DNA of 64,000 nucleotides from an uncultured Desulfosarcina sp. (GTDB taxonomy: Bacteria > Desulfobacterota > Desulfobacteria > Desulfobacterales > Desulfosarcinaceae), in assembly GCA_963674945.2 (NCBI GenBank), contig CAXXWQ010000004.1:1600001-1664000 (forward strand). Direction: 5' to 3'. Positions 13,553 to 38,997 of the stretch are shown one piece after another; positions within the stretch are counted from its first letter, which is position 1; each line of letters begins with the position of its first letter. Position numbers and translations under genes: made by a program. The notes beneath the pieces are model-generated. The model was not told the origin of the DNA. It was given only the letters and a program-made list of their open reading frames with translations, and made no database searches.

Positions 13553-13632
13553 TTTCTATGTCCAAACCCACCGATTGCCCGTCCATGAAATGGCACGTTT
13601 GCCCCATATCCGTACAGGCAATGACGAATGGT

Positions 13633-21356: not shown

Positions 21357-21395
21357 AAAAAAAGCTCGTCATGCACGATTGCATGACGAGCTTTT
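21357..21395 (-). terminator. Rho-independent terminator ending the Agl-Glt-like operon (possibly bidirectional)
   Basis: Perfect inverted repeat AAAAGCTCGTCATGCA-cgat-TGCATGACGAGCTTTT with a 7-A run giving poly-U on the minus strand, ~30 bp after the stop at 21426. Confidence 0.85.
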
Positions 21396-21425: not shown

Positions 21426-23750
21426 CTACTCCGGATTTGCCTGACCCGGATGGTAGGTCAACGTAATGGTAAAATAATAGGGCGCGTCGTAACCCCAGTC
21501 GTTATCCGGTTCATCGTTGGATTCCTCGGTCCCGGGAAGCAGCAGGTAATTGAAATCGCTCAGTCCGATATAGAACTTGGCATCCTGGCCCCATTCGCTT
21601 CCGATCCAGAAGGTATCGTCGCCCGTCGGTGTCGTCAGATCGATGGCCGCAACGGTCTGGGGACTGGTATCCCCAGCACAGGCCTTATACCCATCCGGTG
21701 AAGTGGGATTATCCATGATAATGGCGTTCTGGTTGCTGTCCCGATAGAGCTTCCACACATACTCCACCTGGCTTCCGGGAGTGGGCACCACCAGTCTCAT
21801 TTCCACATCGTAGTACCAACTGGTTTCGGCTCCGGCCGGATCGAGTTTGCCCAAATCGAGCTGGAAAAAATCCCGATCGCCCTGGTAATCCACATATCCG
21901 CAGATCCATGGAAAGGTGATTACCGTTGTACCGTCCCCCGGATCGCTCCATGTCGCATTCGGGCCACGGGCATCGAGCCATTCGGTATTGGCCTTGAATG
22001 TGGGTTGCAGATTCGAGAAGATCTCCAATTCGACATCCTGGGTTTCACCGGCTTCCTGTCCGGTCTCGCCATAGTAGAACAGATCCTGACCGGATGTCTG
22101 TGCGATCGCTACCGGAGCCCCCGCCACCTCCTGGCTGGACGCCGTAATTTCGTATGAAACGCTGGTTCCCTCGTCGTTTTGAGCATCACTCACCTTGAAA
22201 TGGTAGGTGGCGGGGGCCAGATCTGCGGGCACCAGAATCGATGTCTTCAAGTGCGTCTGCCCGTCGCTGCCATCCAAGTCCGACACCTTCTTGATCATCC
22301 GGTCGCCACGCCAGATACTCAACTGGTAGTCCACGATACTGGTGCCCGCAACCAACGAAACGGAAAGAATCCGCGGGGCCGCAGTATCGACCGCGATGGC
22401 GTACCAGTCCACATCGGACTGGTAACTGACCCACCCTTCGGTGGGAATGCCATCGGTCAAGTCTACGGCACTGTTGGTCGTGTTGTCGTCCGTTTCTTCA
22501 ATGGTATCGGTCAAGTCGGGTTCTTCCAATCGGACCCGATAATTCGTACCGAGATTCAATCGTTTCGGATTGGCAGGCGCCACGACCACAAAATATTCAC
22601 CGTTTTCGGTCCTGAACTGGTTCTGGTACAAAGGACTTCCCGGAACGAGATCATAGGAGGTCACCATGGTAAGCTCCGCGTCATACACGACGATGCGAAG
22701 GGGTGCGGTACCATCGACCGTATCGCCGCCGTCGATGGTCATCTGCACCTGATGGTAGGTGGTCGACCCTCCCACGGCCCCCAGCGTAAACCGATACCAG
22801 TCCAGATCACCGGCATGGTCGGGAGAAATGCTCGATGCGCCGTAGTCGATCGTACCTTCGGCCGTGTATTGGCCCGAAATATCTTCTGCCAACAATATGG
22901 CATCATCGACGATGTCATTGCCCTGGGCTTCGGTCACGGCCATCGATCTGACGGAGATGTCATAGGGCGCCCCTGCATCCCCATTCAGGCTGTCGCTGTC
23001 TTCGACAATTACGAAATAAGGGCCGCTGTCCGGCGTCAAGTAACCGCGCACCGTATGGTAGGGATCACAAAGGCGCTGAATCAGGTTACCGCTGTAATCG
23101 TACAGGCTCATGGCCAGTTGAACCGGCGTCCCACCAGCCGGCTTATGATGATCCACATTCACGACGAAAACACCAGAGCCGGCAACATCGAAGGTAAAAC
23201 AGTCCACTTCGCCGATCTCTTCGATGGCGTCGCTGATGGCCGAGGCATCCACGGTCAGGGACTGGGCGTTGGAAAAGTCATGGTTTCCGTCGGCGGCGTC
23301 CTCGAATGTGGCCCGAAGATAGTAGGGGATATCACTCGATGCGTCGTCATCCATCAGGTCCCGAACGGTAATGTACAGCTCCTTTGGAGAATCGATATAC
23401 ACCCAAAGGTCCAAATCGGCGCCCAAAGAGGCGCCATTGGGCTTATGCTTGCCGAACACGCGGCGGCGCTGGCCGTCGACCTCTTCGAAGACCGTGACCA
23501 AAAGATCCACACCGGAGCCGTACGTTTTCTCCTCACAGGAAATGTGCAAGAAACGGTTTGTCTCGGTTGCCCGCAAATAGTAGGTGTCCACCTCACCTTC
23601 CGTTGCGATAAATTGGGTCATGGTTTCCCCGATTTCCAAGGTTCGTACTGCCGGTTCGCCTTCCACCGAATCACTGGAGCCGCCGCATGCCGAGATGGCA
23701 AAGAGTAGAAGCAACCAAATGCATCGCTTTATGTTTTTCATCTTTTTCAC
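21426..23750 (-). CDS. Acidic lipoprotein with about five PPC (pre-peptidase C-terminal)-like beta-sandwich repeats
   Basis: Lipobox LFAISAC; recurring GEVDTY/GEVDCF/GDLDWY/SDVDWY/GDRDFF motifs. Confidence 0.7.
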   Translation of the reverse strand: MKKMKNIKRCIWLLLLFAISACGGSSDSVEGEPAVRTLEIGETMTQFIATEGEVDTYYLRATETNRFLHISCEEKTYGSGVDLLVTVFEEVDGQRRRVFGKHKPNGASLGADLDLWVYIDSPKELYITVRDLMDDDASSDIPYYLRATFEDAADGNHDFSNAQSLTVDASAISDAIEEIGEVDCFTFDVAGSGVFVVNVDHHKPAGGTPVQLAMSLYDYSGNLIQRLCDPYHTVRGYLTPDSGPYFVIVEDSDSLNGDAGAPYDISVRSMAVTEAQGNDIVDDAILLAEDISGQYTAEGTIDYGASSISPDHAGDLDWYRFTLGAVGGSTTYHQVQMTIDGGDTVDGTAPLRIVVYDAELTMVTSYDLVPGSPLYQNQFRTENGEYFVVVAPANPKRLNLGTNYRVRLEEPDLTDTIEETDDNTTNSAVDLTDGIPTEGWVSYQSDVDWYAIAVDTAAPRILSVSLVAGTSIVDYQLSIWRGDRMIKKVSDLDGSDGQTHLKTSILVPADLAPATYHFKVSDAQNDEGTSVSYEITASSQEVAGAPVAIAQTSGQDLFYYGETGQEAGETQDVELEIFSNLQPTFKANTEWLDARGPNATWSDPGDGTTVITFPWICGYVDYQGDRDFFQLDLGKLDPAGAETSWYYDVEMRLVVPTPGSQVEYVWKLYRDSNQNAIIMDNPTSPDGYKACAGDTSPQTVAAIDLTTPTGDDTFWIGSEWGQDAKFYIGLSDFNYLLLPGTEESNDEPDNDWGYDAPYYFTITLTYHPGQANPE

Positions 23751-23762
23751 CTTTTTATGTTT

Positions 23763-25451
23763 TTAGTCGATGAGTTCGAATTGTCCATAACCAAGCGTCT
23801 GCGTATAGGTGCTGTCCTCCAAGGTATTGATGATCACTTCCGCCATTCGAAAGACCGGTGGCGCATTGGGGCGGTCTTCCGGCACCTGCGCGATATAGAT
23901 GCGAATCACATTGTCTCCGGGGTCCAGTATGGAGTTTGAAAACAGCCCACCCGAATCCGCCCCGATGGTTTGCATCAGGCTGATATTGCCAATCTCGAGA
24001 CTGTATCTGCGAATTCCCTGGGGAAGATCAGGAAACTGGATGGGGTCGGGGTTGCCATGGTCGGTCAACCGATAACTATATGCATATCGATCCTGAATCT
24101 TGGGATCGTTGGTCAAAACGTTGGTATGTCTCTGCACTTCGAAAACGTCCAGGGTACCATCCAGATCGGTGTCCTCAGTGTAAAGGTTTTCAAAAGGATT
24201 GGTACCTGCGGCCATTTCGATACCGTCGGGAATGTAGTCCGCATCGAAATCGGCCACGAAGCGCCAGGTTCCCTTGATGGACTCTTCGCAGTCGGTCATT
24301 CCGTCATTATCCTGGTCCGGCCAAACCCCCGAAGGCGGTGCAGGACAACTGCTGTCTTCCACAAGCGGATCGGGCCACATGTTGCCATCGTCCATGAGCG
24401 TCTGGGTCTGGATCTCGAAATAATCACTCAATCCGTCGTCATCCGTGTCCCGAAGCTGCGGGTTTGTACCATGCAATGTGACCTCGTCGTCGTCGGACAG
24501 GCCGTCGCCGTCACTGTCCAGGTACAAGGTGTCGATGCCGGGACGAACATTGTAGTTATAGGCGACGATAAACTTGATCTTGTAGGCATTGGTCAAACGC
24601 ATGTCGGTAAAGTTAATAAAATCGATGGCATTGGCAGAAGCGAAATCCCGAAATGTGCCGTTTCCCGCCTGGGCCATGCCGAACAACGTGTTCTCGGCGT
24701 ACTGCCGTGCGTATTCATAGTCATCCCCCGGGATATACTCACCGGAGGCGTCCCGAAAGAGGGAAGAGAGAAAGAAGGTGTGGAAATTGAACTGGCCCAC
24801 ACCGCGCTCCGCCGTAACCTCGTTCAATGCTTCCACTTGTTCCCAGATGTCCTGGGGAATCTGGGAACCCGCATCCGTATTGGGCATTCCATCGCTGAAA
24901 AAGCAGACGATATACTTGGAGCGGGCCAGATCGTTCTCTCCGGACTCCTGATAGGAGATGTTCATGATATCGTTTTCCACCATCTCTCGAATATCGGTCA
25001 CGGCTCCCACATAGTCGGTATAGGATTCGTTGCGAACATTGTCCATGACCCGGTTCAACTCTTCCGTGGAACGGGTGAATCCTGCTTCACCGTAACCGTT
25101 CTGGGTCTGATCGATGACACTGCCGGCCCACAATATGATCCCGAAGGAGACATTGGGAAACTCATCGGTGTTGTACTGTTCCAGAAAACGTTGTACTGCC
25201 GCGATGCGCCTGCCGTAAGGCTCATCCGGTGGATTGAGTGGATCCGACTCAAGCATGCTCAAAGAACAATCGATGGCGAAAAGCACTTTGACAGGGAACT
25301 GAATGTTTTCCGGATTCTCGGTATGAAATTCTGCGACGATGGTTCCCGAGTCTCGGACGGTGGTTCGTTCGAGCGGAGGACTGTTGTCGCAGGAAACACC
25401 CCACACGATAAAAGTGAGAAAAAAGACGAACAATGAAATTTGCCTACGCAT
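23763..25451 (-). CDS. VWA-domain lipoprotein with C-terminal Ca2+-binding DxDxDG repeats (MtsD/CglB-like)
   Basis: Start reassigned to ATG 25451 (AAGGAG RBS; lipoprotein signal MRRQISLFVFFLTFIVWGVSC); MIDAS DCSLS...T...FFSDG; DSDGDGLSDDDE, DTDDDGLSDYFE, DQDNDGMTDCEE repeats. Confidence 0.8.
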   Translation of the reverse strand: MRRQISLFVFFLTFIVWGVSCDNSPPLERTTVRDSGTIVAEFHTENPENIQFPVKVLFAIDCSLSMLESDPLNPPDEPYGRRIAAVQRFLEQYNTDEFPNVSFGIILWAGSVIDQTQNGYGEAGFTRSTEELNRVMDNVRNESYTDYVGAVTDIREMVENDIMNISYQESGENDLARSKYIVCFFSDGMPNTDAGSQIPQDIWEQVEALNEVTAERGVGQFNFHTFFLSSLFRDASGEYIPGDDYEYARQYAENTLFGMAQAGNGTFRDFASANAIDFINFTDMRLTNAYKIKFIVAYNYNVRPGIDTLYLDSDGDGLSDDDEVTLHGTNPQLRDTDDDGLSDYFEIQTQTLMDDGNMWPDPLVEDSSCPAPPSGVWPDQDNDGMTDCEESIKGTWRFVADFDADYIPDGIEMAAGTNPFENLYTEDTDLDGTLDVFEVQRHTNVLTNDPKIQDRYAYSYRLTDHGNPDPIQFPDLPQGIRRYSLEIGNISLMQTIGADSGGLFSNSILDPGDNVIRIYIAQVPEDRPNAPPVFRMAEVIINTLEDSTYTQTLGYGQFELID

Positions 25452-26286
25452 CGCAAGAATCTCCTTTGCCGTCCTGGTCGGTGTCGGTCTGGTCGGGATT
25501 GGCCACATTTGGACAATTGTCACACGGGTCGCCGATGCCGTCGCCATCCAAATCGCCATTTTCGGAACTTTGCAGGTTGGGGCACCGATCCACGCCGGCA
25601 ATTCCGTCGTGGGCCTCGTCATAACCGTCGTTGTCATAGTCGTTGTCACACATATCACCCGAAATATCGCCGTTGAGATAATAGTCGCTATTCTCCTGAT
25701 TGGGATTCTCGTCGGTGATACAATTATCCAGAAGGTCCGGAATGCCGTCATTGTCATCGTCTGCGTCACAGACATTTCCCAGCCCGTCGTTATCGGGATC
25801 ATCTTCGTCAGGGAATAGAATCTGGTCTGCGTTCATGACGTCCGGGCAAGTATCCTCAGCATTGTCCACGCCGTCGCCGTCCCGGTCGGGGTCACAATCG
25901 TCTCCCAGTCCGTCGCCATCTGAATCGATGTTGTTTTCGGTGGCCAGTTGGGGACAATAATCACATGCGTTTCCGAAGGTATCACCATCGTCATTTTCGC
26001 TGGGATCGTTGGGTACGAAGATGCAGTTGTCGATTTCATCATTGTACCCATCGGCATCGATATCCTCTTGAACGGAAAAGAGCGGCCCCCAGGTATAGGA
26101 GACGATCAAAGGACCGCCCCCGGCGCCACCGCCGCCGACGCCTCCGGAAGGTGGTGCACCGCACTCGTTGTCCGGACATTCATCGAAAATATCATTCCAA
26201 TCCGGTGGATCCGCTGAAAACGTTTCGACACCGCAAACCAAAAGGCCAGCAATCATTATCGCAATATAAGCCAATCGTGTTTTCAT
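25444..26286 (-). CDS. Secreted thrombospondin type-3 repeat protein (MtsC-like)
   Basis: Signal peptide; ECGAPPSGGVGGGGAGGG segment; many D-x-D-x-DG-x-x-(D/N)-x-CD-x-CP units. Confidence 0.85.
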   Translation of the reverse strand: MKTRLAYIAIMIAGLLVCGVETFSADPPDWNDIFDECPDNECGAPPSGGVGGGGAGGGPLIVSYTWGPLFSVQEDIDADGYNDEIDNCIFVPNDPSENDDGDTFGNACDYCPQLATENNIDSDGDGLGDDCDPDRDGDGVDNAEDTCPDVMNADQILFPDEDDPDNDGLGNVCDADDDNDGIPDLLDNCITDENPNQENSDYYLNGDISGDMCDNDYDNDGYDEAHDGIAGVDRCPNLQSSENGDLDGDGIGDPCDNCPNVANPDQTDTDQDGKGDSCDA

Positions 26287-26305
26287 GGAGTCTCCTTCTT
26301 TTTCG

Positions 26306-27715
26306 TCATGGGGTCTGCCGGATCACAATGATTTCATTGTCTTCGTCAGCGTAGGTGCAAATGTGCGGTACCCCCAGTTCATTGAACCACAGCGTGTTGA
26401 ACCTGCCGGCACCGCCATACTCCTTGGCGCTCTCATGATTCCATTGCAACCCGTTAAATTCCGCATATTTTAAAAAGTGGTGAATCCGCCCCGAATGGGA
26501 CTGCTCGTCGAAATAGGCGATCGCCGGTTGACCTTCGGCGGTAAACGCCAACGAACAATGGGATCCGCACCACGTGGTTTCATCGACGACTTGATAGGTC
26601 CACTGCCCTCCCCGATTGGTCGCAAAGCGAAGATGGTGGCCGTTGTCCGGCTCGGGGTCCGGCAACCTCACGGCATAGGCAATGGCCAACGGTCGTTCGG
26701 CTTCAGGATTCTCCGGATCTTCGGGATAGAATGCGGCGCTGATACCGCCGATTTCCCAGCCATCGGGAAGGGCGTCCACAACTTCTCTGTGCCACTGTCC
26801 TGCCTCATCCTTATAAGCCATTTTAAGGGCGTAGGTGCCCATGAAATTCTCACCTCGTTCTCCATATACAAGGATGGGCAGATCCTGTTCGTCTAAGATC
26901 AACTGGCAATAGTCACCGACCGTATTGTGGATGCCATAAGTGCTGAAGGCATTTCCATCCACAAATTCTTCGATTTCGGCAAATTCTTCGATATTGTCTA
27001 TGGGTTGGGTCAGACGCGTGCGGTCCCAATAGGCATAGTAAAGATCGGGATACCGGAAATTTGCCGAATCCATGCCTTCGGTGAAGTACTGGTAGCAAAA
27101 ATGTATATTGCCCGAACGATCCACTTTAACGGACATGTTTTCGGTTATGTGGCCGTCCTGGTACACTGGGTTTCGTTCCACGAACCCGACGGCACCGGTG
27201 GATTCCTGCCAGGTTCCACCCACCAGCACATTCACCATTACATCGGCCTCCACCTGCTGAAGATAGTCGTTCACTTCGTAGGTGGGATAGATAAAAATCG
27301 CAGCGCCGTCTTCGTCCAATGCCATGTCGAATTGATCGCAGCGATCGAATCCGGGGACACCGGAAGGTGCCGGTCGATTATCGACCACATTCGCGACCCG
27401 ACTGTCGGTACTCGAATTCCAAACCAGGTGATGAAGCTGGTGATAGGAGACCTCCGTCGATTCCTGCACTGCGTCGTACCAGGCAAAATGGACATTGCCG
27501 GCATCCCCTGGCCTTGCCACGACATAGGGAACCGTAGTCCCGTTTTCCGACACCGTTTCGATGTGGATCGTCTGCCAATTGCTAGGGCGGCCTTCACTGT
27601 CGTACGGTTCCACCGGCGCATCGGGTCCCCCGCCACAAGCAGTGAGCGACAGCGCCATTGCAAACAGCGCGATGATAATGGAAAATGATTTATTGACTGG
27701 CCATGGCAAGTTCAT
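26306..27715 (-). CDS. Lipoprotein, probable beta-propeller
   Basis: Lipobox LSLTAC; repeated beta-rich units such as GQWHREVVD, GQWTYQVVD and LQWNHES. Confidence 0.65.
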   Translation of the reverse strand: MNLPWPVNKSFSIIIALFAMALSLTACGGGPDAPVEPYDSEGRPSNWQTIHIETVSENGTTVPYVVARPGDAGNVHFAWYDAVQESTEVSYHQLHHLVWNSSTDSRVANVVDNRPAPSGVPGFDRCDQFDMALDEDGAAIFIYPTYEVNDYLQQVEADVMVNVLVGGTWQESTGAVGFVERNPVYQDGHITENMSVKVDRSGNIHFCYQYFTEGMDSANFRYPDLYYAYWDRTRLTQPIDNIEEFAEIEEFVDGNAFSTYGIHNTVGDYCQLILDEQDLPILVYGERGENFMGTYALKMAYKDEAGQWHREVVDALPDGWEIGGISAAFYPEDPENPEAERPLAIAYAVRLPDPEPDNGHHLRFATNRGGQWTYQVVDETTWCGSHCSLAFTAEGQPAIAYFDEQSHSGRIHHFLKYAEFNGLQWNHESAKEYGGAGRFNTLWFNELGVPHICTYADEDNEIIVIRQTP

Positions 27716-30700
27716 TGTAAACGGCTCCTAATCGTGGATGAACACTGCCCTTCTCCGCATTGGTGGGCGAGATATTCTTGAGAAGGTCGGCGGCCTTTTC
27801 CAAATGTCCGTAATGTCTATAGATCCCTGCAAGGTTCATTCGCGCGGAGGCCAGCCGCTCATCGGCTTCCAGCGCACGTTTGAAGGTCTCCTTGGCAAGC
27901 TGATCCTTTCCGCAATACAGATGCGATAGCCCTACGAGATTCAGCAATTTGGCCTTTGTCTGCTTTTGTCCCCGATCCAGCTTGGGAAGTGCATTTCTCG
28001 CCACGAGACCGGCCTGCTGATAATCCCCCTTTTCCATGTAAATGCTGGCAAGTTGAAGCTGAAGACTTTCATCATCGGGCGTTTCAAGGAGTTTTTCGTA
28101 AAGTGCAAGAATGATCTGCTGCTCCATTCCATGAACACCAATTTCGGTGCTGGCTTGGCCACCGCCGATGCTTGCAAGAACGCCATCGCCTCCCTGCGGG
28201 TTGTCGGCGGGATAGAAGTAGCCACTCAGCGTTGGGTCACAGATTTCCCACTTGCGCGCCAATTCGACGCAGGTCTTTACATACTGGTGGGCCTTGGTCC
28301 TGTAGTCCTGTGCCTTTTGCCGGATCAAGTCTTTGTATTGGGCCTGCTGTTCTGGAGTAAGGTCCTTTGGAATGGGAGAGTTCTGTAGAAAATCAGCGAA
28401 CTCGGCATTTAACTCATTGGCGCGAAAACAGGCACGAAGTGCCCATGCCGGCGACTTGAAGGTCATCACATGCTGGTAATCCTCCTCCAGCTTTTTAAGC
28501 AGGGCCGCTTTTTGCTGAACGATTTTATTGTCGATCTGGTTCGTAAGGCGCAATTTGAAATAGGGTCCACTACTGCCTTTCACCTTTTGATAGGCCATCT
28601 CGGCCATCAGGTCACGTAAAATGGGATCTTCTTCACCCAATTGACTACGGTACGATTTTTCTGCTCTGCGACGATATTTATCGGCCTGTGAACGCCGGTC
28701 TGCCTGCATGTTGAGTACGGCAAGCTGTGCATCGGCGCGGACCTTTGCACCGGGAGAGAGCCGGTTTCGGTGTGAACCGAGAATTTGAATGGCCGATGCG
28801 GATTGGTCAAGCTCTTTCATGTTGTCGACCATGGCAAAAACAATTTCATCCGGAGAAACCGCGGATTGTTTGGGAAATGTCAGCAGGAGGCGGTAATTCT
28901 GATTGGCCTTGACGTACTGACCAAGCCCCTCACGAATCCGGGCGGCCTGAAGAAGAAAATTTGCACAATTCTTGTCCTTCGGGTATCGGCGGCATAAGGT
29001 TTCCAGGTGATCGGCCAGTGTGCGCAGCTGGCCGATGGAAATGGAAGTATTAATCAAGATTCCCAAGGTATCTTTCGCATTGGATGAATTCGGGTAGAGG
29101 TCGATCAGCTTGGTTCCGGCATCGAACAAAGTGGCCAAATCCTTTTTATCCTTGCTGGAAAGGATCAACGCATTTAAAGCCTGCTCTCCCATCTGCGTCT
29201 TCTCACTTTGGCCTGCCACCTGAATCAACTCACGCCTGGTCGTCTCCCAATCATCGTTGGCGGCCATAGTGATGCTGGAAACAACTCTTTCACCAGCACC
29301 TTGGACCATCTGGGCCACCTCCCCCTTAAGTTTGGCATCGTGTATGCCGGCATTGGCCAGGATCGTGTTGCCATACTGGATCATGCCATCATAATTTTCC
29401 ATCAGGTGATATGCGTCCATGACCAGATGAACGGCGGCCGGTGTTGCCTTGTGTGAGGGATAACGGTCAACGAATTCAGCCAGATCCTTTATGGCCAGTT
29501 CGAAATCACCGGCATCGTGGGAGACCCAAGCCACGTTGAACTGTACATCGGCTGCATAGCGGGAATCAGGATATTCACTGACGAAGGTTTTGCCTACACT
29601 TCTAAGACCATCGCGGGCGTATGCTGCCTGGTAATAATTTAGTTTGTCCTTATTTTTCAATGCGGTATAGTATGAGATGACAGAGCTGTAGAGGGTGTCT
29701 TTTCGCAGCTTGGCGTTCATCGTCGTAGCCGGTGTCACCTTCTCATATTGCTTGCCGGCTTCTAAGTACCGGCCTGCTGAAAAAAGGGCCTCGGCATAAT
29801 TGAGAGCCATCTCTTCGACAAAATCGGATTCCGTGAAAAAGTCTATGTATTGTGCATATGCATCTGCCGCGATTTCAAAATCCCGACGGGAATTGGTCTT
29901 GTTCGCCTTGGCATGCAAATGGGTAATGATATCCCGTGCGAAAATTTCGTAATCGTTGATCAGCTTGTTCTTTTCTTCCGTTCCCATGCGAACCGAGTAA
30001 ACCTGAGATGAAAGGGCCCTAACGATTATTCCCACATCCTTTTCTGCGTGCTGATAGGTCCCCATTGCCTGAACACTTTCGAAAATATACTTTGCATATT
30101 CGAGAAGTTTCTCCGGATCCTGTCGAACGAGAGCAAGCTCACGATATATGGGTGCGGCAAGCGACCATTTTTTCTTTACGTAGTAACGATATGCCAGTTT
30201 TTCCAATACCGTGGTATAGACCGGTCGGGACCAGGCATATTTTGAAAAGTAGGCCAACGCCTGTTCAGCCGTCGCCTTTTTGAATACTTCAGGATAGCAA
30301 AAGGCCAAATCGACAATCGATTCCAAACGGACGTCCACGCGGCGGTATGTATCGATATCGAGTTCCTTGGCTGCTTGAGGACTGGTAATGGAATCCTCGA
30401 AAAGCTTCATCGCGCCTTTAAAATCCTTTTGGTTGATTCGGCACCAGGCCAGTTTATATCGTGCCGCCGCAACTGCGGGACTCGATGGATATTTCAGCAC
30501 CGCCTCGTAGTGCCGGGTACTTGTATCGACATCCTGCTTTTGATTGAAGAAGTAATCTCCCAAGAGCAATTGGGACTCGGGTGCGTAGACGCTGTCCGGA
30601 AACTTTTTTAGAATAATGCGGTATTGCGCAATCATTTCATCTGTGCGGCCCAACTCATGAAACTCATGGGCCATAAAGAAGTAAACCTTGTCCAGGTATT

Positions 30701-31142
30701 GAAAGTCCGGATACTGGTTGATGATTCGCTGATAGATCTCAACGGCCTGGGTCTTCAGTGTATTTGCCTCGTACTGATCCAAAGCGCGCTCTTCGCCATG
30801 GTCATATTGACTTTTTCGTAAGAAATAGACCAACCGGGATTTCTCGATGTAAAGCTCTGCCAGACGCAAGTACAATTCCGGCAGGTAGGGACGATTTTTC
30901 GATCGGCTGATTAAGGTCTTTGTGTTATCGATGGCCAGATCGCATTTTCGTTTATCCTGTTCGAGCTTTACAATATACTGTTTTTTTTCCGCATCTGCGT
31001 CTTTTTCTTCGTACACATATTGCTCGGATTCTTTCGAATCGGTTTTCTCTCCCGAGAAAAAGAATGCCGATACAATTTGCGGCGTCACGAGCAATAATGT
31101 GACCAAAAGAAATAGCAGTTTGATTTTTTGATACGGTTTCAT
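27690..31142 (-). CDS. Large periplasmic TPR protein, GltD (AgmU)-like with GltE-like C-terminal TPR extension
   Basis: Signal peptide from ATG 31142 (ATGA overlap with upstream stop); ELYLRLAELY, LLGDYFF, YKLAWCRIN TPRs; late SPAWALRA...KAHQYVKTCVELA motif. Confidence 0.75.
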   Translation of the reverse strand: MKPYQKIKLLFLLVTLLLVTPQIVSAFFFSGEKTDSKESEQYVYEEKDADAEKKQYIVKLEQDKRKCDLAIDNTKTLISRSKNRPYLPELYLRLAELYIEKSRLVYFLRKSQYDHGEERALDQYEANTLKTQAVEIYQRIINQYPDFQYLDKVYFFMAHEFHELGRTDEMIAQYRIILKKFPDSVYAPESQLLLGDYFFNQKQDVDTSTRHYEAVLKYPSSPAVAAARYKLAWCRINQKDFKGAMKLFEDSITSPQAAKELDIDTYRRVDVRLESIVDLAFCYPEVFKKATAEQALAYFSKYAWSRPVYTTVLEKLAYRYYVKKKWSLAAPIYRELALVRQDPEKLLEYAKYIFESVQAMGTYQHAEKDVGIIVRALSSQVYSVRMGTEEKNKLINDYEIFARDIITHLHAKANKTNSRRDFEIAADAYAQYIDFFTESDFVEEMALNYAEALFSAGRYLEAGKQYEKVTPATTMNAKLRKDTLYSSVISYYTALKNKDKLNYYQAAYARDGLRSVGKTFVSEYPDSRYAADVQFNVAWVSHDAGDFELAIKDLAEFVDRYPSHKATPAAVHLVMDAYHLMENYDGMIQYGNTILANAGIHDAKLKGEVAQMVQGAGERVVSSITMAANDDWETTRRELIQVAGQSEKTQMGEQALNALILSSKDKKDLATLFDAGTKLIDLYPNSSNAKDTLGILINTSISIGQLRTLADHLETLCRRYPKDKNCANFLLQAARIREGLGQYVKANQNYRLLLTFPKQSAVSPDEIVFAMVDNMKELDQSASAIQILGSHRNRLSPGAKVRADAQLAVLNMQADRRSQADKYRRRAEKSYRSQLGEEDPILRDLMAEMAYQKVKGSSGPYFKLRLTNQIDNKIVQQKAALLKKLEEDYQHVMTFKSPAWALRACFRANELNAEFADFLQNSPIPKDLTPEQQAQYKDLIRQKAQDYRTKAHQYVKTCVELARKWEICDPTLSGYFYPADNPQGGDGVLASIGGGQASTEIGVHGMEQQIILALYEKLLETPDDESLQLQLASIYMEKGDYQQAGLVARNALPKLDRGQKQTKAKLLNLVGLSHLYCGKDQLAKETFKRALEADERLASARMNLAGIYRHYGHLEKAADLLKNISPTNAEKGSVHPRLGAVYNELAMASQ

Positions 31143-32689
31143 TTGAAAAATATATCCCATTCTTCGGCATTTTTGCACTTGTTGGGCAAGACGACCTCAT
31201 AATGATCCAATTCGTCGTTCCAAAACTCACCCTGAAACGCATAGATGGCTTTTCCATCCATTGATTTGCAATCTTTGGCCATCGCGTCATCTTCTTCGTC
31301 GTAGTGATAGGTGTGAACGCGCTGGTACATGTCGATACCGATCTCATATTCCATCAGATGGGCCTCTTCTTCGAATTGCAGCATGGAGTTGGCCATCACT
31401 TCATATTTATCACTCATTCGCTTTTTAAATTCACGCTCCATTTCCTCACGTTTGAGCGTGTACAGTTTATCGAGATACGCCTTTACCTCAGGGTCTGTAT
31501 ATTTTTGTGCAAGATCATGTTCTTTCTCCAGCAAATTCAAAAACCGCCACTCCCTTTGAATCACAGGTTTATTCAAAAGAACCAGCAGCATGGCCTGATT
31601 GTCATGGATGGGTTTACGTTGATAAATATGTTCCAGGGACTGACCATACCGGTCCTCGAATTTATCGAGGACCTTCATCGCGGTTTGATAGTGGCAAACA
31701 TCCTTATAGATAAATGATTTGAGGATATAAAACTCCGGTGTGAAGGCGTTGGTATAACTTGGTGCTTCGAAAGAGTAAAGAAGACCCATTGCACGCTCCG
31801 GGTTTCCCAATCGGTAGTGCACCCATGCACGCTCGAGGAGATTTTGAGATTGCTCGACGATGTTCATTTCGATCTGCTCGTAAAGCAGATCCGCGTCTTG
31901 GAAGTTTCCTTTCTCGTAATACAAGCGAGCCAACGTTTTTCGTGCATCATCCTTAAGCGGGTCCCCGTCTTCCAGCTTACGGAGTACCTTTTTTAACAAG
32001 GATATGGCGCTGTCGATACGGTTGTTGTAAATTTCGCGAAGTGCTCGTTTGAACAAATATTTGTTGTGATAGAACGTATCTTCCGGAATTTTCTCGAAGT
32101 GTTCATCCCCCCACTCGAAAAAGCCGTGCTCCCAGTCGTATTCCCCTTGGTAATAATTTATGAAGTCGGCAATATACCCTTCGAGAAAGCCGTAACTTTG
32201 GTCGCACAATGCACGATCGACGATCATTTTCTTGTCATAGGGGCTGGTCCTTGTGATCTTTTCCAACAATTCCAGCACGTAGTTAACGATTTGGGGGTTT
32301 GGCTTTCGGGTCACAAGATGGGTAAGCGAATCGACTGCGGCGTGGGTATATCCCAGCTTGTACAGGCTCATTCCAAAAAAGAACTCTGCCCATTCGTAAT
32401 CTTGTACGTCCGGTGTACTGGCATTCAAAAACATTAAAAGTTCACTGGCCGCCTTCTCGTACTTTCTCTTGCTGTAATGATCGTACCCCAGCGCAAAAAG
32501 CTGCCTGATGTCGCCCTCTTGAAGCTCAGATGGATCGGCCGCCACTGTATTCACTGTCTGATGATCGACCTCCGGTGAGAGCGTGTCGGTATCCGTGGTC
32601 GACGCCCGGGATGATCCTATTGCGGACAACAATACCAAAAGCAGCGTTGCGATAATCTTTGCCATCGGTTTTATCCAATCAGCCATCAT
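31139..32689 (-). CDS. TPR protein, GltC-like
   Basis: Signal peptide; LARLYYE, LLERAWVHY, PEFYILKSFIYKDVCHY; C-terminal FQGEFWNDELDHY...C signature. Confidence 0.8.
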   Translation of the reverse strand: MMADWIKPMAKIIATLLLVLLSAIGSSRASTTDTDTLSPEVDHQTVNTVAADPSELQEGDIRQLFALGYDHYSKRKYEKAASELLMFLNASTPDVQDYEWAEFFFGMSLYKLGYTHAAVDSLTHLVTRKPNPQIVNYVLELLEKITRTSPYDKKMIVDRALCDQSYGFLEGYIADFINYYQGEYDWEHGFFEWGDEHFEKIPEDTFYHNKYLFKRALREIYNNRIDSAISLLKKVLRKLEDGDPLKDDARKTLARLYYEKGNFQDADLLYEQIEMNIVEQSQNLLERAWVHYRLGNPERAMGLLYSFEAPSYTNAFTPEFYILKSFIYKDVCHYQTAMKVLDKFEDRYGQSLEHIYQRKPIHDNQAMLLVLLNKPVIQREWRFLNLLEKEHDLAQKYTDPEVKAYLDKLYTLKREEMEREFKKRMSDKYEVMANSMLQFEEEAHLMEYEIGIDMYQRVHTYHYDEEDDAMAKDCKSMDGKAIYAFQGEFWNDELDHYEVVLPNKCKNAEEWDIFFK

Positions 32690-33389
32690 TTAAAATTCTC
32701 TTCAATTTTTTCACGGTTGGATCTTCTTTGACCTTTCTAGGCGCCAGATCGAATCGAAATCCGACGCCAAGACCAAAGTAGATATTATTCTCCGTCTCAT
32801 CTTCCCTGAAGTTCATCAAATCACGGACTTCGACATTGAGGCACCATCTCTCAGACAAAAAGAATTTCATCCCGGCACCAAAACTTATGGAAAGTGCGTC
32901 TTCGGTCTTTGTCTCGCCGGTGCTGTACTCCCACTCGTAACGAACGATACCCGGGCCTGCAAAGAAGCTGATTTCGTTATTGATTACACTATGGTTTCTG
33001 AATGCGTGTTTTCCGTACAACGGCTTGTAGACAAAATGCGTGTGGAGCATGTATCTTTGCTCCGGGAACAATTCCGGTTGAACGTTGAAGTCGTTTCGCA
33101 AGGTGGCTTTCAGGTCTTTGTCGCTATTGAACATATACTGGGCCCGGGCGACTTCCCATGCGATACCTTCGGTAAAGTGATATGTATAACCGAGACCGAT
33201 GGGGTACACATGAAAGAAGTCGTCATCGGCAATATACCCGACACTCAGGTCGAGTTCATGACTTCGATGAAACACCCGATTTTGCACAGCACTTACTTTT
33301 TCTTCGCCAGTAGCGGTTTCACACCAACCCAATTGACTGCCGAAGACAAGGGTGGTCAGAATAATTCCAATGACGACTCTTACATTCAT
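32679..33389 (-). CDS. Outer-membrane beta-barrel protein, GltA/GltB/GltH-like
   Basis: Signal peptide; AVQNRVFHRSHELDLSVG, YKPLYGK and GAGMKFFL motifs typical of myxobacterial-type OM barrels. Confidence 0.8.
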   Translation of the reverse strand: MNVRVVIGIILTTLVFGSQLGWCETATGEEKVSAVQNRVFHRSHELDLSVGYIADDDFFHVYPIGLGYTYHFTEGIAWEVARAQYMFNSDKDLKATLRNDFNVQPELFPEQRYMLHTHFVYKPLYGKHAFRNHSVINNEISFFAGPGIVRYEWEYSTGETKTEDALSISFGAGMKFFLSERWCLNVEVRDLMNFREDETENNIYFGLGVGFRFDLAPRKVKEDPTVKKLKRILNDG

Positions 33390-33425
33390 TACCTTCTCCT
33401 ATACTCTCTTAACTTTGGTCGTGCG

Positions 33426-35870
33426 CTAAAAGGAAACCAGGTCGAATACGAACGGATAGCTGACGATCACCTCCGAACCAACCGGTTTCGGGAACTGCCA
33501 GGACTGAATCGCCGATTTGATGCAACCATGAATCTGGTTGGAGTTCACACTGGATGCGACGATCCGAATCTCCCCAACACGTCCATTTCTCATAATTTTC
33601 CACTCGAAAACGATTCGGCCCAAAATGGAGGGATTGGACATCAACGCGGTTTCGTAGCAGTATGTAATCTCATCCAGGTGCTGATCGATGACCCGTTTTA
33701 CCATCTCGCGACTCATGCCGCCTTCGATCTTGACGGTTCGATTCATCTTGGCCGTAACCATGGCCTGGACTTTTTTCTTTCCGGTGGTCCCACGCTCCAA
33801 TGCCGCGACCTCTCCTTTGCCGCGCGCACCACCACTGCGCAGAACTTGGGAGGATCCCTTGGTTTGAACGATCTGGCCGGTAGCCACCGAAATCTTGCCG
33901 TCGCCCAAGGCGCCTTTCAGGCCGCCAACGCTGAAGTTCTTTTCCGTGGCGCCGGGTACTGAGACGGCATCGAGATTGGTCACCGCCACCATCGCCTGGG
34001 AAGGATCGGATGCGGAAGCGGAGGTTCCCCCCAAAACACTCAACAAACCGGTTTGATTGATGTTTCGATTCTTTATGTTTCCCTTACCAAAACCACCGCC
34101 GGCTTTGGGATGCTTGCTATTCTGGCCTGCGACTGCCTTTTTGCCTATTTTTGCATTTTTCGTGTTTTTAACCGTAGTGTTGGCTTTTTGTTCGACTTTT
34201 TTTGCCGGTGGCGGCGCGACTTCCTTCTTCGCTTCTTGGGCAACCGGTTTCACAGGCGTCGGTTTCTTCGGTTCCGGCTTTATTTTCGGTTTCTCCATCT
34301 GCGCTAACATGGACTTATCAATCTTCACGAAGTGAAGTTCTTGCTTCTCGGGCTGGTGGGCCTGGAAAAAGGCGTGAATGGCGATCACCAGAAAAAACAT
34401 GAGATGCAGGCCCAACGAAGTTGCCCAGTGCTTCCATATCAATGTCTTTTCGGCCGGCGCGGCCTCCACCTGGGGACTTTGTGCATACGGAACCCGGTCG
34501 ATTCGGTATTGGCAGGCGCCATCATCGATGATCACGGCCCCATCGTCGGGAAGTGGAATTTCAAAGGCGGATCGATTCTTACGGCTTCGATAGGTTTCGG
34601 TCTTGTAATTATTTAAATCAGCAGTGATGACGCCAGAAGAATTCAATACAACGCCACCGAATGCCTCGGAAAAGATGACCACCTCTTGGTCATCGATGTA
34701 CCGGACCACATCCATCCGTCTGCCGCCAACTTCGACTGGATATGTTTGCCCATTGGTAATACAAGCCACATCGACCACGGCACTTCCCATGGTCTTTACG
34801 ACCTGCAGTTGAATCTTCGTTCGGTCTGTATTTTTAAAAGTTTCGATCGGAGACAGGATCTGATTCAGTGTGAATGGGGCATCCCAGATCTCTCCGTCCT
34901 CGTCCGCTTCCTCATCCACGGGGAAGTAATCCTGCGGAAAAGTGACGGATTCTTCTTTATTTTCGACAAAAGAAACAGTTTGATCGAAAGTGCTATTTGC
35001 CGAAGGAATTTGACTTTGGGTCTCGGTTGACACCGCTTCGGGTTCGGGGACTTGTATATGCCCGGCTTCCTCTAGCGAAACGGCTTGCACAGAATCGTTA
35101 CTTGTCGAATGATTTTCACTTTCGGTTACTGCCGCCGCCACTTCATTTTTGGCTACACTTTCATATTCGGGTACTGTTGAATGCGCCGTATTTTCCAATC
35201 CTTCCGCAGTCGTCTTCTGGCTGTCTTCTTCGGATGGCTTCACTTCTGTTGGAGGCGATGGCTGCTTCTCTTCCAGTTGTACATCACAGATGATGCCCGC
35301 TTTGAGCATGGCATTTTGGATTTGGGCGGCCTCGATTCCGCCCAATCCCTTTTTCACGACGACGTGTTCTTTTTCGACAAGTGGCAGTATCTTTTCCAGA
35401 TCGGTACGAAACATCTTGGACAAGTTTACCGCCGCCGTTTTCATCGCCGCTACGGAACCATATCGGTTCACCAGACGAACGGCATAGGAGGTTTTCTCAT
35501 TGTCCAAAGAACTGGCCGGACGTTCCTTCACCTGTACCTTCAATGCGAATGGACCGATGACGATCACATCCTCATGCTTGAGTTGTGCGGTGCGAACCGG
35601 CATTCCATTTAGACGAAGCCCATTTTGAGGGAACCGGTTTGTCAAGATTGCCTGTTCCCCTTGAAAATTCACGAGTGCATGAATGTCCGCGACAGACTGA
35701 TGATCCAGAAAAAGGTCCGCCTGCCTGCTGCGCCCGATGGTAATCTGATCTTTTTCGAATTTTCGTTCACTTACAAAATTGAGATTCTGATAGACTTGAA
35801 AATGGGTCATCGTCTGCGAACGTAACGATTCGGATTGGATTTGACCGAATTTTTCTTCTATATTCTTCAT
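33426..35870 (-). CDS. FHA-TM-TonB-like energy transducer, GltG (PglI)-like
   Basis: N-terminal FHA (ITIGRS...H...NG); acidic linker; TM WATSLGLHLMFFLV; Pro/Lys-rich spacer; C-terminal ITYCYE...GRIVFEW...CI...WQFPKP...VSYPFVF (AgmX/PglI C-terminal type). Confidence 0.85.
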   Translation of the reverse strand: MKNIEEKFGQIQSESLRSQTMTHFQVYQNLNFVSERKFEKDQITIGRSRQADLFLDHQSVADIHALVNFQGEQAILTNRFPQNGLRLNGMPVRTAQLKHEDVIVIGPFALKVQVKERPASSLDNEKTSYAVRLVNRYGSVAAMKTAAVNLSKMFRTDLEKILPLVEKEHVVVKKGLGGIEAAQIQNAMLKAGIICDVQLEEKQPSPPTEVKPSEEDSQKTTAEGLENTAHSTVPEYESVAKNEVAAAVTESENHSTSNDSVQAVSLEEAGHIQVPEPEAVSTETQSQIPSANSTFDQTVSFVENKEESVTFPQDYFPVDEEADEDGEIWDAPFTLNQILSPIETFKNTDRTKIQLQVVKTMGSAVVDVACITNGQTYPVEVGGRRMDVVRYIDDQEVVIFSEAFGGVVLNSSGVITADLNNYKTETYRSRKNRSAFEIPLPDDGAVIIDDGACQYRIDRVPYAQSPQVEAAPAEKTLIWKHWATSLGLHLMFFLVIAIHAFFQAHQPEKQELHFVKIDKSMLAQMEKPKIKPEPKKPTPVKPVAQEAKKEVAPPPAKKVEQKANTTVKNTKNAKIGKKAVAGQNSKHPKAGGGFGKGNIKNRNINQTGLLSVLGGTSASASDPSQAMVAVTNLDAVSVPGATEKNFSVGGLKGALGDGKISVATGQIVQTKGSSQVLRSGGARGKGEVAALERGTTGKKKVQAMVTAKMNRTVKIEGGMSREMVKRVIDQHLDEITYCYETALMSNPSILGRIVFEWKIMRNGRVGEIRIVASSVNSNQIHGCIKSAIQSWQFPKPVGSEVIVSYPFVFDLVSF

Positions 35871-35907
35871 CTCATTCTACCCGTTGATATTATTCATATT
35901 TGCCTAT

Positions 35908-36234
35908 TTACTTATTTTTCGACAATATCGTCTCATCGGGCAAACCATCGTCTCCCTTTGCGATGGCTGATGATTCCAAATCAAAGTCTTCTCTGATTTC
36001 GTTTCGATAGTTTTCCCGCACCTCGATCATATTTTTAATTTCGCTTTTTTTGCGATGCATCAGGTAAACTGCGCCGGACTTGATGCTCTGTCCGAGAATC
36101 TGTGCGTTTCCGAAATCAATTCGCTGCTGGAGGGCCTTTTGGTCACCACCTACAGCTATTGACATCGATGAGGCAAAAAAGATGAGGCAAAAATTAAAAT
36201 TGAGAAACACTTTTCGAAACATTGAAATATTCAT
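35908..36234 (-). CDS. Small exported protein, GltF (CglF)-like
   Basis: Signal peptide then IDFGNAQILGQ...YLMHRKKSEIKNMIEVRENYRNEI, matching the IDF..I.G...R.....+.VR.N pattern of GltF; lies between the motor genes and the gltG-like gene. Confidence 0.7.
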   Translation of the reverse strand: MNISMFRKVFLNFNFCLIFFASSMSIAVGGDQKALQQRIDFGNAQILGQSIKSGAVYLMHRKKSEIKNMIEVRENYRNEIREDFDLESSAIAKGDDGLPDETILSKNK

Positions 36235-36243
36235 ATCTGACCC

Positions 36244-36741
36244 TTATTTATTCTTCTCTTCAAGTACTCCAAACTGAAAATTCGGATACCCGGCCATTCC
36301 AGAGGTTTTAATTACGGAGTTAATTGTCTTGAATGAATGGGATTTGTCACACAGAAAAAGAACGTGTGGCTGTTCCTGTTTGTCATTCTCTTTTGCCTTC
36401 ATATCTGATCGGAATCTCTTCAGCCGCTTGAATAATTCAGAGGACTGCAGATCCTTTCCGGAAAGGCCCTCGATTTCTTCGTGATTTACCTTTGCCATCA
36501 CCTCGTCATTGATTCGAAGCTCGGTTTTGGTAAGGATAATTTTCAGGGCCTGCTGGTACTTTACTTCAGCAGTGGATCTTGGCAATTGCAGATCCTCACC
36601 AAGCTTTATTTTCTCTGGTGATTCAGAAAATGAAAAGAGAAGAAATATCAATATGATGGTAAACATATCCATCATCGATGTAAGCATGAGCTTTGGTGGA
36701 ACGAACGTTCTCGCTGATTTTCTTCGCCGACCTAAAGCCAC
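36244..36741 (-). CDS. ExbD/TolR family motor subunit (AglS-like)
   Basis: TM LMLTSMMDMFTIILIFLL with the conserved Asp; LCDKSHSFKTINSVIKTSGMAGY. Confidence 0.9.
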   Translation of the reverse strand: MALGRRRKSARTFVPPKLMLTSMMDMFTIILIFLLFSFSESPEKIKLGEDLQLPRSTAEVKYQQALKIILTKTELRINDEVMAKVNHEEIEGLSGKDLQSSELFKRLKRFRSDMKAKENDKQEQPHVLFLCDKSHSFKTINSVIKTSGMAGYPNFQFGVLEEKNK

Positions 36742-36752
36742 TTTCTTTCCTC

Positions 36753-37265
36753 CTAACCCAAGGATCCAGACAATACCACGTTTGGGAAAAGAACCTGTGA
36801 TTCATGCATGCGTGCACAATCCATGGCCTGTACGATTTCCCGGTAAGTCACCTCATTATCAGGAATCAGGATCATGGTGTCACTTGCCGGAAAACTTTTC
36901 TTTAATTTTTTCAAATAGCCCGCCACTTCGGATACGGCAAGGTCCCGTCCTTTTCCTCTTGGCAGAACCAATTCCTTTTCAGTGATCTGGATATCGTTCG
37001 GTGTATCGGAGAGGGTTGAGATTCGAACTTGATCCGATTTGATTTCAAGGACAACTGTAATTTTCTTCTGGAGCTCCTTGGCCGCCACCGACGCCGCAGG
37101 TGTATCTGCATGAACAGGAATGGAGGTGTTTATCGCCTTGATATGCAAAAAGGATACGGACGTCAGAAGAAACGGAATTAACACCATAAACAGGTTCATG
37201 ATGGGAATCATGTTTAGTTCCGGTTCTTCTTCGGGTGCTCGATTAAATCTACTGAATCGTGCCAT
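36753..37265 (-). CDS. ExbD/TolR family motor subunit (AglQ-like) with Asn at the conserved Asp position
   Basis: ELNMIPIMNLFMVLIPFLL; LIPDNEVTYREIVQAMDCAR...LFPNVVL. Confidence 0.9.
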   Translation of the reverse strand: MARFSRFNRAPEEEPELNMIPIMNLFMVLIPFLLTSVSFLHIKAINTSIPVHADTPAASVAAKELQKKITVVLEIKSDQVRISTLSDTPNDIQITEKELVLPRGKGRDLAVSEVAGYLKKLKKSFPASDTMILIPDNEVTYREIVQAMDCARMHESQVLFPNVVLSGSLG

Positions 37266-37893
37266 CTGGAATCCTCTTCTGTTTCATGGCGGAAAGCACG
37301 TTGGCAAGTCCCAAAGCTTTTTCTTCAATTTTATCAATTAAAAAATCGCCACGGTTGTTAAGCAGGTAAAAACCGCCAAGACACGGAATTGAAACCACCA
37401 GACCTGCCGCAGTGGTAAGCATTGCCATTGAAATACCGCTTGCGAGAACTTCTTGTTTCATTGCCTCATCTGCAGCACTAACACTTTGAAAAGCTGTAAT
37501 AAGCCCGAGAATTGTACCCAACAATCCGAGTAATGTTGCAATGTTGGCAAAAAGGGTTAACAAATTAACTCGAGATTTCACTCGGGGTAATTCTGAAACG
37601 ATCTTCTCTTCCATCGCACGTTCTATTTCCTGATCCTTTCGGTCTGCCTTTAACAGACCTGCTTTCAGAATATTTCCCAAAGGATGTTTTTTGATCTTGG
37701 AGCATTCGGCCAGAGCCGAATTGAAATCCATTTTTTCTAATGGAATGAGCACTCTTTTATAGGCACTGTCCATGTTAAGGCGCATCTGATAGTATAAGAA
37801 CGCTGCGCGTTCCACAAAAATTGCCATTGCAACGATTGAGACCCCTAAAATCACAAACATGAATGGTCCGCCATTGTTGAGTAAGGAAAACAA
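37249..37893 (-). CDS. MotA/TolQ/ExbB family ion channel subunit (AglR-like)
   Basis: TTG start with AAAGGAGG RBS; GGPFM, NIATLLGLLGTILGLITAF, GISMAMLTTAAGL. Confidence 0.92.
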   Translation of the reverse strand: MFSLLNNGGPFMFVILGVSIVAMAIFVERAAFLYYQMRLNMDSAYKRVLIPLEKMDFNSALAECSKIKKHPLGNILKAGLLKADRKDQEIERAMEEKIVSELPRVKSRVNLLTLFANIATLLGLLGTILGLITAFQSVSAADEAMKQEVLASGISMAMLTTAAGLVVSIPCLGGFYLLNNRGDFLIDKIEEKALGLANVLSAMKQKRIPDGTIQ

Positions 37894-38736: not shown

Positions 38737-38997
38737 CTACCTGGACTTGGCAGATATGATGGGAGTATTGAAAATCAACGCTGACAGGTCGTTTTCCCGT
38801 GTTATATCAAGTTTCAGTTGGTCCTTGTCAATAACGAAATATCGTGAAATTACAGCGACAATCTCATTTTGCATATCTTTTAAGATGTCTTCGGAGACCT
38901 CTAAGCGATCATATACCAAGGCGAACTGCAGACGTTTCTTGGCCGTTTCCTTGCTGCCCCCCTTGGTAAAAAGTTTTTTCAAGAAATCATTTAGCAT
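38737..38997 (-). CDS. minE: Cell division topological specificity factor MinE
   Basis: SKETAKKRLQFALVYDR, EIVAVISRY; follows minD. Confidence 0.93.
   Translation of the reverse strand: MLNDFLKKLFTKGGSKETAKKRLQFALVYDRLEVSEDILKDMQNEIVAVISRYFVIDKDQLKLDITRENDLSALIFNTPIISAKSR

Follow-up and report, generated by a model that had tools for sequence, protein, structure and literature searches.

A twelve-gene block in an uncultured Desulfosarcina combines an Agl-type motor, a probable G5-type scaffold and Mts-like candidate adhesins

The Gene Block and Its Boundaries

We analyzed a 64,000-nucleotide stretch of the genome of an uncultured Desulfosarcina sp. (the window; contig CAXXWQ010000004.1 of assembly GCA_963674945.2, positions 1,600,001 to 1,664,000), which carries a block of 12 tightly packed open reading frames (ORFs), all on the minus strand and spanning window positions 37893 down to 21426. 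The genes are labelled g1 to g12 in transcription order, and all coordinates are window positions. A preliminary description, made from the sequence alone, had proposed a self-contained trans-envelope motor operon resembling Agl-Glt and Nfs, with its own adhesin-like cargo. Its gene-by-gene assignments are supported by the domain calls: MotA_ExbB (g1), ExbD (g2 and g3), a CglF-like protein (g4), FHA plus an AgmX/PglI tail (g5), an OMP_myx_plus barrel (g6), a GltC-like protein (g7), a long TPR protein (g8), and BNR-like (g9), thrombospondin type 3 (TSP3; g10), vWA plus TSP3 (g11) and PPC (g12) domains in the last four.

From g1 to g12 the junctions measure -17, 11, 9, 37, 36, -11, -4, -26, 19, -8, and 21 bp (negative values are overlaps), given the starts that we judge to be real for g8 (31142), g11 (25451) and g12 (23741). 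Listed as a 679-aa ORF, g11 would overlap g10 by 359 bp; its signal peptide and lipobox start at 25451. With these corrections the reported layout of 12 co-oriented genes with overlaps or gaps of at most 37 bp holds. The long upstream non-coding region that had been noted amounts to 843 bp between g1 and an ORF (38737..38997, minus strand) that we take to be minE from its place after MinC/MinD-type genes. This last gene of an upstream minCDE lies outside the block and sets its upstream limit, and the flanks differ in relatives.

The 7.08-Mb genome has one copy of the block, with g4, g6, g9, and g12 matching only themselves, and no plasmid copy of g7 was found; the other ExbB genes of the genome sit at five separate loci. 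The genome also holds a dsrA-like motif match, and the close homologues of g11 carry record titles naming Desulfosarcina, Desulfosarcinaceae and Desulfobacteraceae; the host is thus probably a sulfate reducer of Desulfosarcina type. As first described, no TonB-dependent receptor, TolB or Pal occurs among the 12 genes or the 22 other window ORFs scanned. Domain scans detected no hydrolase or toxin domain in the block.

An Agl-Type Motor With an Asn/Asp ExbD Pair

The first three genes encode a putative ion motor: g1 (37249..37893), an AglR/ExbB-type subunit of 214 aa (PF01618, 1e-27); g2 (36753..37265), a 170-aa ExbD (PF02472) in the AglQ position, in which Asn24 replaces the channel Asp; and g3 (36244..36741), a 165-aa ExbD (PF02472) in the AglS position, which keeps the Asp. 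In Myxococcus xanthus, aglQ directly follows aglR (Luciano et al., 2011, PMC3169522; the papers cited here by PMC number or DOI were available in part, and statements drawn from them apply to those parts). We compared g1 with motors of the proteobacterial core complex, which comprises aglR, aglQ, aglS, gltC, gltD, gltE, gltG and one extra gene. In an ExbB tree of 37 rows, which includes no Myxococcus or TolQ rows and has long branches among the Ton rows, 29 Agl-type rows (g1 orthologues, a distant family designated f74, the metagenomic locus L077 and ten proteobacterial core-type motors) separate from eight Ton-type rows of the same genome with support of 99/95. Within the former, the g1 orthologues, f74 and L077 are grouped at 94/88 (not starred) and join the ten core-type motors. 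On the strength of this separation we class the motor as Agl-type, with one ExbB and two different ExbD subunits, and distinct from Ton, as had been proposed.

Ton and Tol-Pal systems have a single ExbD/TolR with Asp and either a receptor or TolB/Pal, whereas the block has two different ExbDs, one of them with Asn, and no such receptor or partner. A TonB-like capture system, in which the surface lipoproteins would bind a substrate and the motor would drive its import, could draw on the ExbB, ExbD and TonB-C-like parts, and the sigma-54 control predicted below would suit a conditional nutrient system. We nevertheless regard uptake as very unlikely, given the missing receptor, a 213-residue barrel that is probably too small for a gated transporter, the place of g1 outside the Ton-type rows, and the five other ExbB loci of the genome.

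The position in g2 is Asn in 19/19 orthologues and that in g3 is Asp in 19/19, the register of the Asn having been checked against six ExbDs of the same genome and ExbD/TolR entries of the PDB, with AglQ itself outside the alignment. The same pair is found in L077 and in 12/12 proteobacterial core-type loci (L143-L154, from the phylum of genome G459), and relatives of the L077 subunit carry Asn in 119/120 cases; the searches behind the last two counts used Asn-containing queries and are thus biased toward Asn. The idea that an Asn ExbD is a peculiarity of this block was rejected, because all 12 core-type loci have one too. Possibly, the Asn/Asp pair marks non-gliding Agl-type motors in general; no report of such a pair was found in the literature searched, which left most subscription papers outside its coverage. 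Two threonines of the ExbB helices, to which we presume a role in the motor, are kept in 17/18 and 18/18 sequences. Because the pair is so widely conserved, we infer that g1 to g3 form a working asymmetric motor. Ion motors of the 5:2 type are usually pictured with two equivalent aspartates, and the conserved Asn/Asp pair poses a mechanistic question for them.

Transducer, Scaffold and Outer-Membrane Barrel

The next five genes would link the motor to the outer membrane. The product of g4 (35908..36234, 108 aa) is a small exported GltF/CglF-like protein that matches NF033764 below its cut-off (3.7e-5), and two orthologues match at 6.5e-7 and 4.7e-5. A kinship between GltF and the extra gene of the core loci was considered and found unsupported (HH 0.8%; CglF match in 0/6). 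By eye, a conserved I-x-G-x-x-E-x-P-x-V motif in that small extra gene (L158:11042-11386 and five similar) resembles g4.

The GltG-like transducer g5 (33426..35870, 814 aa) has an FHA domain, a linker, a single membrane helix predicted from hydropathy (residues 482-504) and a TonB-C-like AgmX/PglI tail. It matches NF033760 at 7e-43 (147 bits, cut-off 650) and passes the cut-off of NF033768 (106 bits, cut-off 40). A small additional segment after the FHA domain (residues ~128-200, window 35270-35490) lies outside the Pfam and NCBIfam matches. The g5 profile also matches an ORF at G000:C4:2016873 (1e-7), which has no evident FHA start.

A small outer-membrane beta-barrel of GltA/B/H type is encoded by g6 (32679..33389, 236 aa; TIGR04565 at 98 bits, above the cut-off of 60; PF13505). 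It is the only barrel-type match in the genome, which holds no GltA+GltB+GltH set. By analogy, its conserved N-terminal V-x-A-x-Q segment could be a strand taken up by the GltC-like protein. The latter, g7 (31139..32689, 516 aa), is a predicted periplasmic TPR protein that matches NF033756 below its cut-off (2e-26) and the core GltC profile at HH 96%.

The largest protein of the block, g8 (27690..31142, about 1150 aa), appears to be a TPR scaffold that unites a GltD-like part (residues 77-992) with a GltE-like TPR tail (1024-1136). Against a GltD profile built from ten proteobacterial core-type loci it scores HH 100% over 848 columns and is the top match among the 16653 ORFs of its own genome. 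The match of the tail to GltE TPRs (HH 96%) is weaker and generic to TPRs, and the block has no separate GltE gene. Sequence comparison with solved structures returned none for g5, g11 or the g9 profile, and generic TPR matches only for g8.

Surface Proteins Resembling Mts Adhesins

The last four proteins are acidic, as had been noted (D+E 0.15-0.27, K+R 0.02-0.06). The first, g9 (26306..27715, 469 aa), is a lipoprotein and likely a BNR-type beta-propeller (BNR_4 8.9e-5, below the cut-off; Atlas leads 0.86-0.94); its lipobox Cys is invariant, and its homologue in L077 matches at HH 98%. The best NCBIfam matches of g10 and g11 are MtsC and MtsD, respectively, which NCBIfam names cell-cell cohesion proteins (NF047638, NF047639). 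With nine DxDxDG motifs and 15 Cys, g10 (25444..26286, 280 aa; TSP_3) matches NF047638 at 5.5e-54 (184 bits, cut-off 350) and has no MYXO-CTERM anchor. By sequence we treat it as a distant MtsC homologue, not as a member of the equivalog.

The MtsD-like lipoprotein g11 (23763..25451, 562 aa) comprises a vWA domain with an intact MIDAS, TSP3 repeats and a beta-rich C-terminal domain. Its match to NF047639 (2e-28) reaches 99 bits, against a cut-off of 800, and the vWA+TSP3 lipoprotein architecture is common to MtsD. The MIDAS residues (D61, S63, S65, T145 and D187) are intact in 19/19 orthologues. In the predicted model (pLDDT 92.9) the vWA domain reaches Z scores of up to 20 in structure comparison, and by this fold and the DxSxS...T...D pattern we identify g11 as a MIDAS-type vWA protein; exposure at the surface and ligand binding are predicted. 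Structural alignments with several pilus-tip adhesins and a beta-3 integrin extend over both ends of the model, but with a root-mean-square deviation of 7-12 A; they do no more than hint at a vWA domain inserted into a beta-sandwich. The final gene, g12 (21426..23741, about 771 aa), encodes a lipoprotein with putative PPC-like beta-sandwich repeats (PF04151 0.0025, below the cut-off; Atlas leads).

Conservation of the Block

We searched several genome samples, which overlap one another. A strong match to the MtsD model (E 1e-16 or better) was found in nine of 60 relatives; at eight of the nine loci the 12 genes are all present in unchanged order between different flanks, and the ninth is a 5-kb contig with g9 to g12. 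In one of the eight complete loci (L019, genome G025), g9 (6278-7721) and g5 (13460-15782) are each present as two ORFs, through decay or assembly error. Across a sample of 400 genomes of the phylum, g7 occurs in 11, three of which hold all 12 genes in order and one of which (L048) runs off its contig in g11. Six more belong to the distant family f74, in which the order is permuted (mtsC-mtsD-g12-motor-F-G-barrel-C-D-g9). Of these, G101 and G137 have the complete block, contig ends truncate it in G316, G289, and G169, and G200 is represented by a short contig alone.

At the level of the order (400 genomes), g7 is found in 27 and g11 in 23, and all 23 g11 genomes have g7. The two lie on one contig about 7 kb apart in 18 of the 23; in the other five, g7 is within 5 kb of a contig end, on its downstream side. 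Together with the complete loci, these counts bear out the co-conservation of the four downstream genes with the core of the block. A 2.9-kb contig (L028) matches g11 at 76%; it was binned with Lysobacterales, in a genome without a g7 match, and is probably mis-binned.

A metagenome scan with distant MtsD-like proteins gave 77 loci, and we examined 14. On a myxobacteria-like contig (L077, 68% GC), motor, GltF-like and GltG-like genes are divergent from a gene whose product scores above the MtsC family cut-off (485 vs. 350), and homologues of g11, g12, and g9 then follow. Four further loci (L065, L066, L069, and L071) have g9 and g12 homologues beside MtsD-like genes and no motor within the available DNA. 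Since these homologues adjoin MtsD-like genes in all five loci, g12 homologues coming after them in myxobacteria-like loci, we assign g9 and g12 to the Mts module by gene neighborhood. None of ten core loci (20 kb each) carries homologues of g9 to g12. In the phylum of G459, the GltC family model gave one weak match in 401 genomes, whereas the ExbD profile revealed core-type loci in 10/321; the GltC model therefore misses the core.

Relation to Known Agl-Glt and Mts Systems

The preliminary description had supposed that no orthologous locus was yet functionally described. The scaffold matches a published cluster of M. xanthus, G5 (MXAN_1327-1331), for which a 2011 study reported no known function (Luciano et al., PMC3169522). 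Its proteins MXAN_1331, 1330, 1329, 1328, and 1327 measure 162, 749, 246, 538, and 1089 aa (PMC3169522, Table S3), similar to the 108, 814, 236, 516, and 1150 aa of g4 to g8. Both follow the order GltF-GltG(FHA)-barrel-GltC-GltD, with one barrel and no separate GltE, and STAUR_1954-58 has a G5-type arrangement too (PMC3169522). Unlike G5, for which the available report gives no adjacent motor, the block has a motor and Mts-like genes co-oriented with the scaffold, in an anaerobic sulfate reducer. We place the block in the Agl-Glt superfamily and consider that it is very probably of G5 type.

The second counterpart is the mts locus. MtsC is MXAN_1334 (PMC12475490), three genes from G5 in Myxococcus. 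In mts, as in the block, a TSP3 protein is followed by a vWA+TSP3 lipoprotein; mts has two or three MtsD-like genes and the block has one. In the block's near relatives g10 has neither the C-terminal domain nor the MYXO-CTERM anchor of MtsC, whereas the f74 version keeps a hydrophobic tail. Homologues of g9 and g12 adjoin true MtsC genes in myxobacteria-like loci. The supposition of an undescribed locus thus failed in part, as the G5 and Mts parts are in print. Of the link between them no account was found: no work joining G5 with mts, or placing such a system in Desulfobacterales, turned up in the literature searched, whose coverage excluded most subscription papers, including Zhang et al. 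(2007). Database searches and cluster look-ups returned no Myxococcus genome or named G5 protein. What is new here is a compact block uniting two Myxococcus loci that are both in print but unlinked there.

The Agl-Glt gliding machine resembles the block in its R-Q-S motor, FHA-GltG, GltC, GltD and GltF, a barrel platform and a MIDAS lipoprotein. Its CglD joins TSP-type calcium repeats to a vWA domain, and the MIDAS Asp is required for the function of both CglB and CglD (PMC9946355, 10.1101/2023.10.19.562135). According to the available parts of the same sources cglD never clusters with glt genes, whereas in the block the adhesin genes are internal. In place of the essential Asp28 of AglQ the block's first ExbD has Asn; the block also has one barrel and no separate GltE. 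We found no full-length GltJ in the genome (the GltJ model gives domain-level matches only) and no GltI-sized TPR ORF. The preliminary description had noted the absence of gltI, gltJ and mglA from the window; a genome-wide search upheld this for the first two, whereas an MglA-like small GTPase gene exists elsewhere (G000:C3:2274976-2275590, motif match only). MglB was not evident among the neighbors of that gene that were examined, and no search was aimed at GltK, AglZ or MglB.

This inventory bears on whether the block encodes a minimal true gliding or surface-translocation machine, with g11 in the role of CglB. The block does have a motor, transducer, scaffold, barrel and MIDAS lipoprotein, the genome has the MglA-like gene, and a zinc-ribbon protein encoded 3.6 kb upstream is weakly GltJ-like. 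We judge gliding unlikely, given the lack of full-length GltJ and a GltI-sized protein, the single barrel, and a patchy presence (27/400 genomes). In the available account, moreover, G5 cannot replace the gliding genes and the core was judged insufficient for gliding (Luciano et al., PMC3169522). By its gene content we place the block outside the gliding machine proper.

Two further relatives differ in other ways. The core complex has a sister motor clade, a homologous GltD and the same Asn/Asp pair, but in its loci GltG is short and the GltE-like gene is separate. Nfs, like the block, is a non-gliding Glt paralogue in one cluster; it differs in borrowing AglRQS and in having three barrels, a separate NfsE and a polysaccharide cargo (PMC3858216).

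A Proposed Non-gliding Adhesion Machine

An AlphaFold model of the gliding complex traces a path from the motor through GltG, GltD, GltF, GltC and the barrel to the adhesin (PMC11761067), and each link has one counterpart in the block. Following this published Myxococcus model, the motor would consist of five g1, one g2 and one g3. The g5 membrane helix would receive its stroke, and the periplasmic arm of g5 would wrap g8. Between the g5 tail and g7, g4 would form a bridge, and g7 would clamp the N-terminal strand of g6. The outer face of the g6 barrel would hold the g11 lipoprotein. The MIDAS of g11 could then bind a ligand on a neighboring cell or in the matrix, with g9, g10, and g12 as accessory surface subunits; having no anchor, g10 would depend on a partner for its retention at the cell. 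GltJ and GltI tie the gliding complex to the cytoskeleton (PMC11761067). Because the block has no such link, force would set, tension or release the adhesins locally and would not be carried along the cell.

We therefore favor, with a probability of roughly 55%, a self-contained, non-gliding, ion-driven machine of G5/Mts type within Agl-Glt, which would anchor and mechanically load calcium-dependent Mts adhesins on the cell surface for cell-to-cell or cell-to-surface cohesion. The preference over the other readings rests on the counterparts along the path and on the lack of GltJ and GltI. An adhesin-displaying, ion-driven machine, as first suggested, fits all findings, although it is less novel than it first seemed, with the G5 and Mts parts already in print.

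The same mechanics could also serve contact with other species, for partner recognition in a consortium or attachment to prey. Asn-type ExbD relatives of L077 include those of the predators Bradymonas sediminis and Microvenator marinus and of a Sandaracinaceae bin, likewise predatory in habit. In M. xanthus, MXAN_1327 belongs to a cluster, labelled Tad-like, that is upregulated in co-culture with prey (PMC10196010). The naming of MtsC and MtsD as cell-cell cohesion proteins and the lack of a detected hydrolase or toxin domain speak against such a target, and we think it improbable.

Several observations weigh against a cohesion machine of G5/Mts type. Both g10 and g11 fall far below the MtsC and MtsD cut-offs; the MtsD-like family, moreover, is large and has multiple paralogues per locus. 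Orthology to G5 rests on order, size and hidden Markov model matches. A polar mutant in the G5 gltD (MXAN_1327) showed no appreciable motility defect in the available account (PMC3169522), whereas the title of Zhang et al. (2007) gives mts a role in social motility; a shared machine predicts similar phenotypes, although the assays may differ. The Asn of g2 resembles AglQ D28N, which abolishes proton conductance and paralyzes the gliding motor (PMC3858216), and motor activity is therefore not assured. Related genomes are non-independent samples, one locus of the phylum sample (L046) has g2 to g9 and no g10 after g9, and four of the 27 g7 genomes, all fragmented assemblies, have no g11 match.

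What the non-gliding Agl-Glt copies (G4, G5, M2 and core) do was left open by Luciano et al. (2011, PMC3169522). Should the block indeed be such a cohesion machine, a job would have been found for the gliding-motor paralogue G5. Since a single conserved unit brings the motor together with a G5-type scaffold and with Mts-like adhesins, we predict that G5 serves Mts. As a guess, the orphan motor M2 (MXAN_3003-3005) serves G5, and both predictions can be addressed in the genetically tractable M. xanthus. The block would also suggest a way in which sulfate reducers of sediments might aggregate. More tentatively, G5 and Mts might be one machine, an ancient "adhesion motor" of myxobacteria and sulfate reducers, in which a one-aspartate asymmetric 5:1:1 ion motor would pull an integrin-like MIDAS/thrombospondin complex and so make or break cell-cell bonds. 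Gliding in Myxococcus would then be derived, such a cohesion device having gained another channel aspartate and a link to the cytoskeleton. We see this broader scheme as possible, though doubtful.

Expression Signals and Neighboring Genes

A predicted sigma-54 -24/-12 promoter element (38052..38068, minus strand) matches the strict motif 174 bp upstream of g1. The motif precedes the first gene in 16/18 loci (shuffle mean 0.14; opposite strand 1), with the pattern fixed after the sequences were seen and shuffles that preserved base content only. Among these 16 are the five f74 loci in which mtsC comes first. Counts of sigma-70 promoters did not differ from chance (20 vs. 21.8). The genome encodes an RpoN-like ORF, and we predict from the motif that the block is expressed in a conditional program under sigma-54 control. 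No FHA-containing sigma-54 activator was found among the 49 activator-like ORFs identified by motif in the same genome. In the myxobacteria-like loci, such an activator (L065:6844-8211) adjoins mts-like genes, and an FHA-containing gene does so in L069 and L071.

Downstream of g12, the strong terminator that had been reported was confirmed as a hairpin with T runs on both sides (21357..21395, minus strand; -27.3 kcal/mol, z -5.2, 0/200 shuffles as good) and is probably bidirectional. Beyond it lie three glycosyltransferase genes on the same strand, and BNR- and PPC-like domains can bind glycans; an Nfs-like machine that would spread or tighten surface polysaccharide might be read from this, Nfs being a known non-gliding use of the architecture (PMC3858216). 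Yet the terminator and 349 bp separate these genes from the block, the ORFs that flank the block in relatives do not include them, the conserved cargo is the MIDAS/TSP3 pair, and the gene set is unlike nfsA-H. We therefore hold a polysaccharide role to be quite unlikely, and keep to cohesion.

The first of the three (15222-21008, minus strand) encodes a 1928-aa protein in which a long tandem array of ~35-residue Trp/Tyr/Pro-rich repeats is joined to a group 1 glycosyltransferase domain; two GT2 genes come after it. On the other side, beyond minCDE, the gene upstream of the block mentioned above (41509-43623, minus strand) encodes a protein with a zinc ribbon and DUF3426, which weakly matches the GltJ N-terminus (8e-4).

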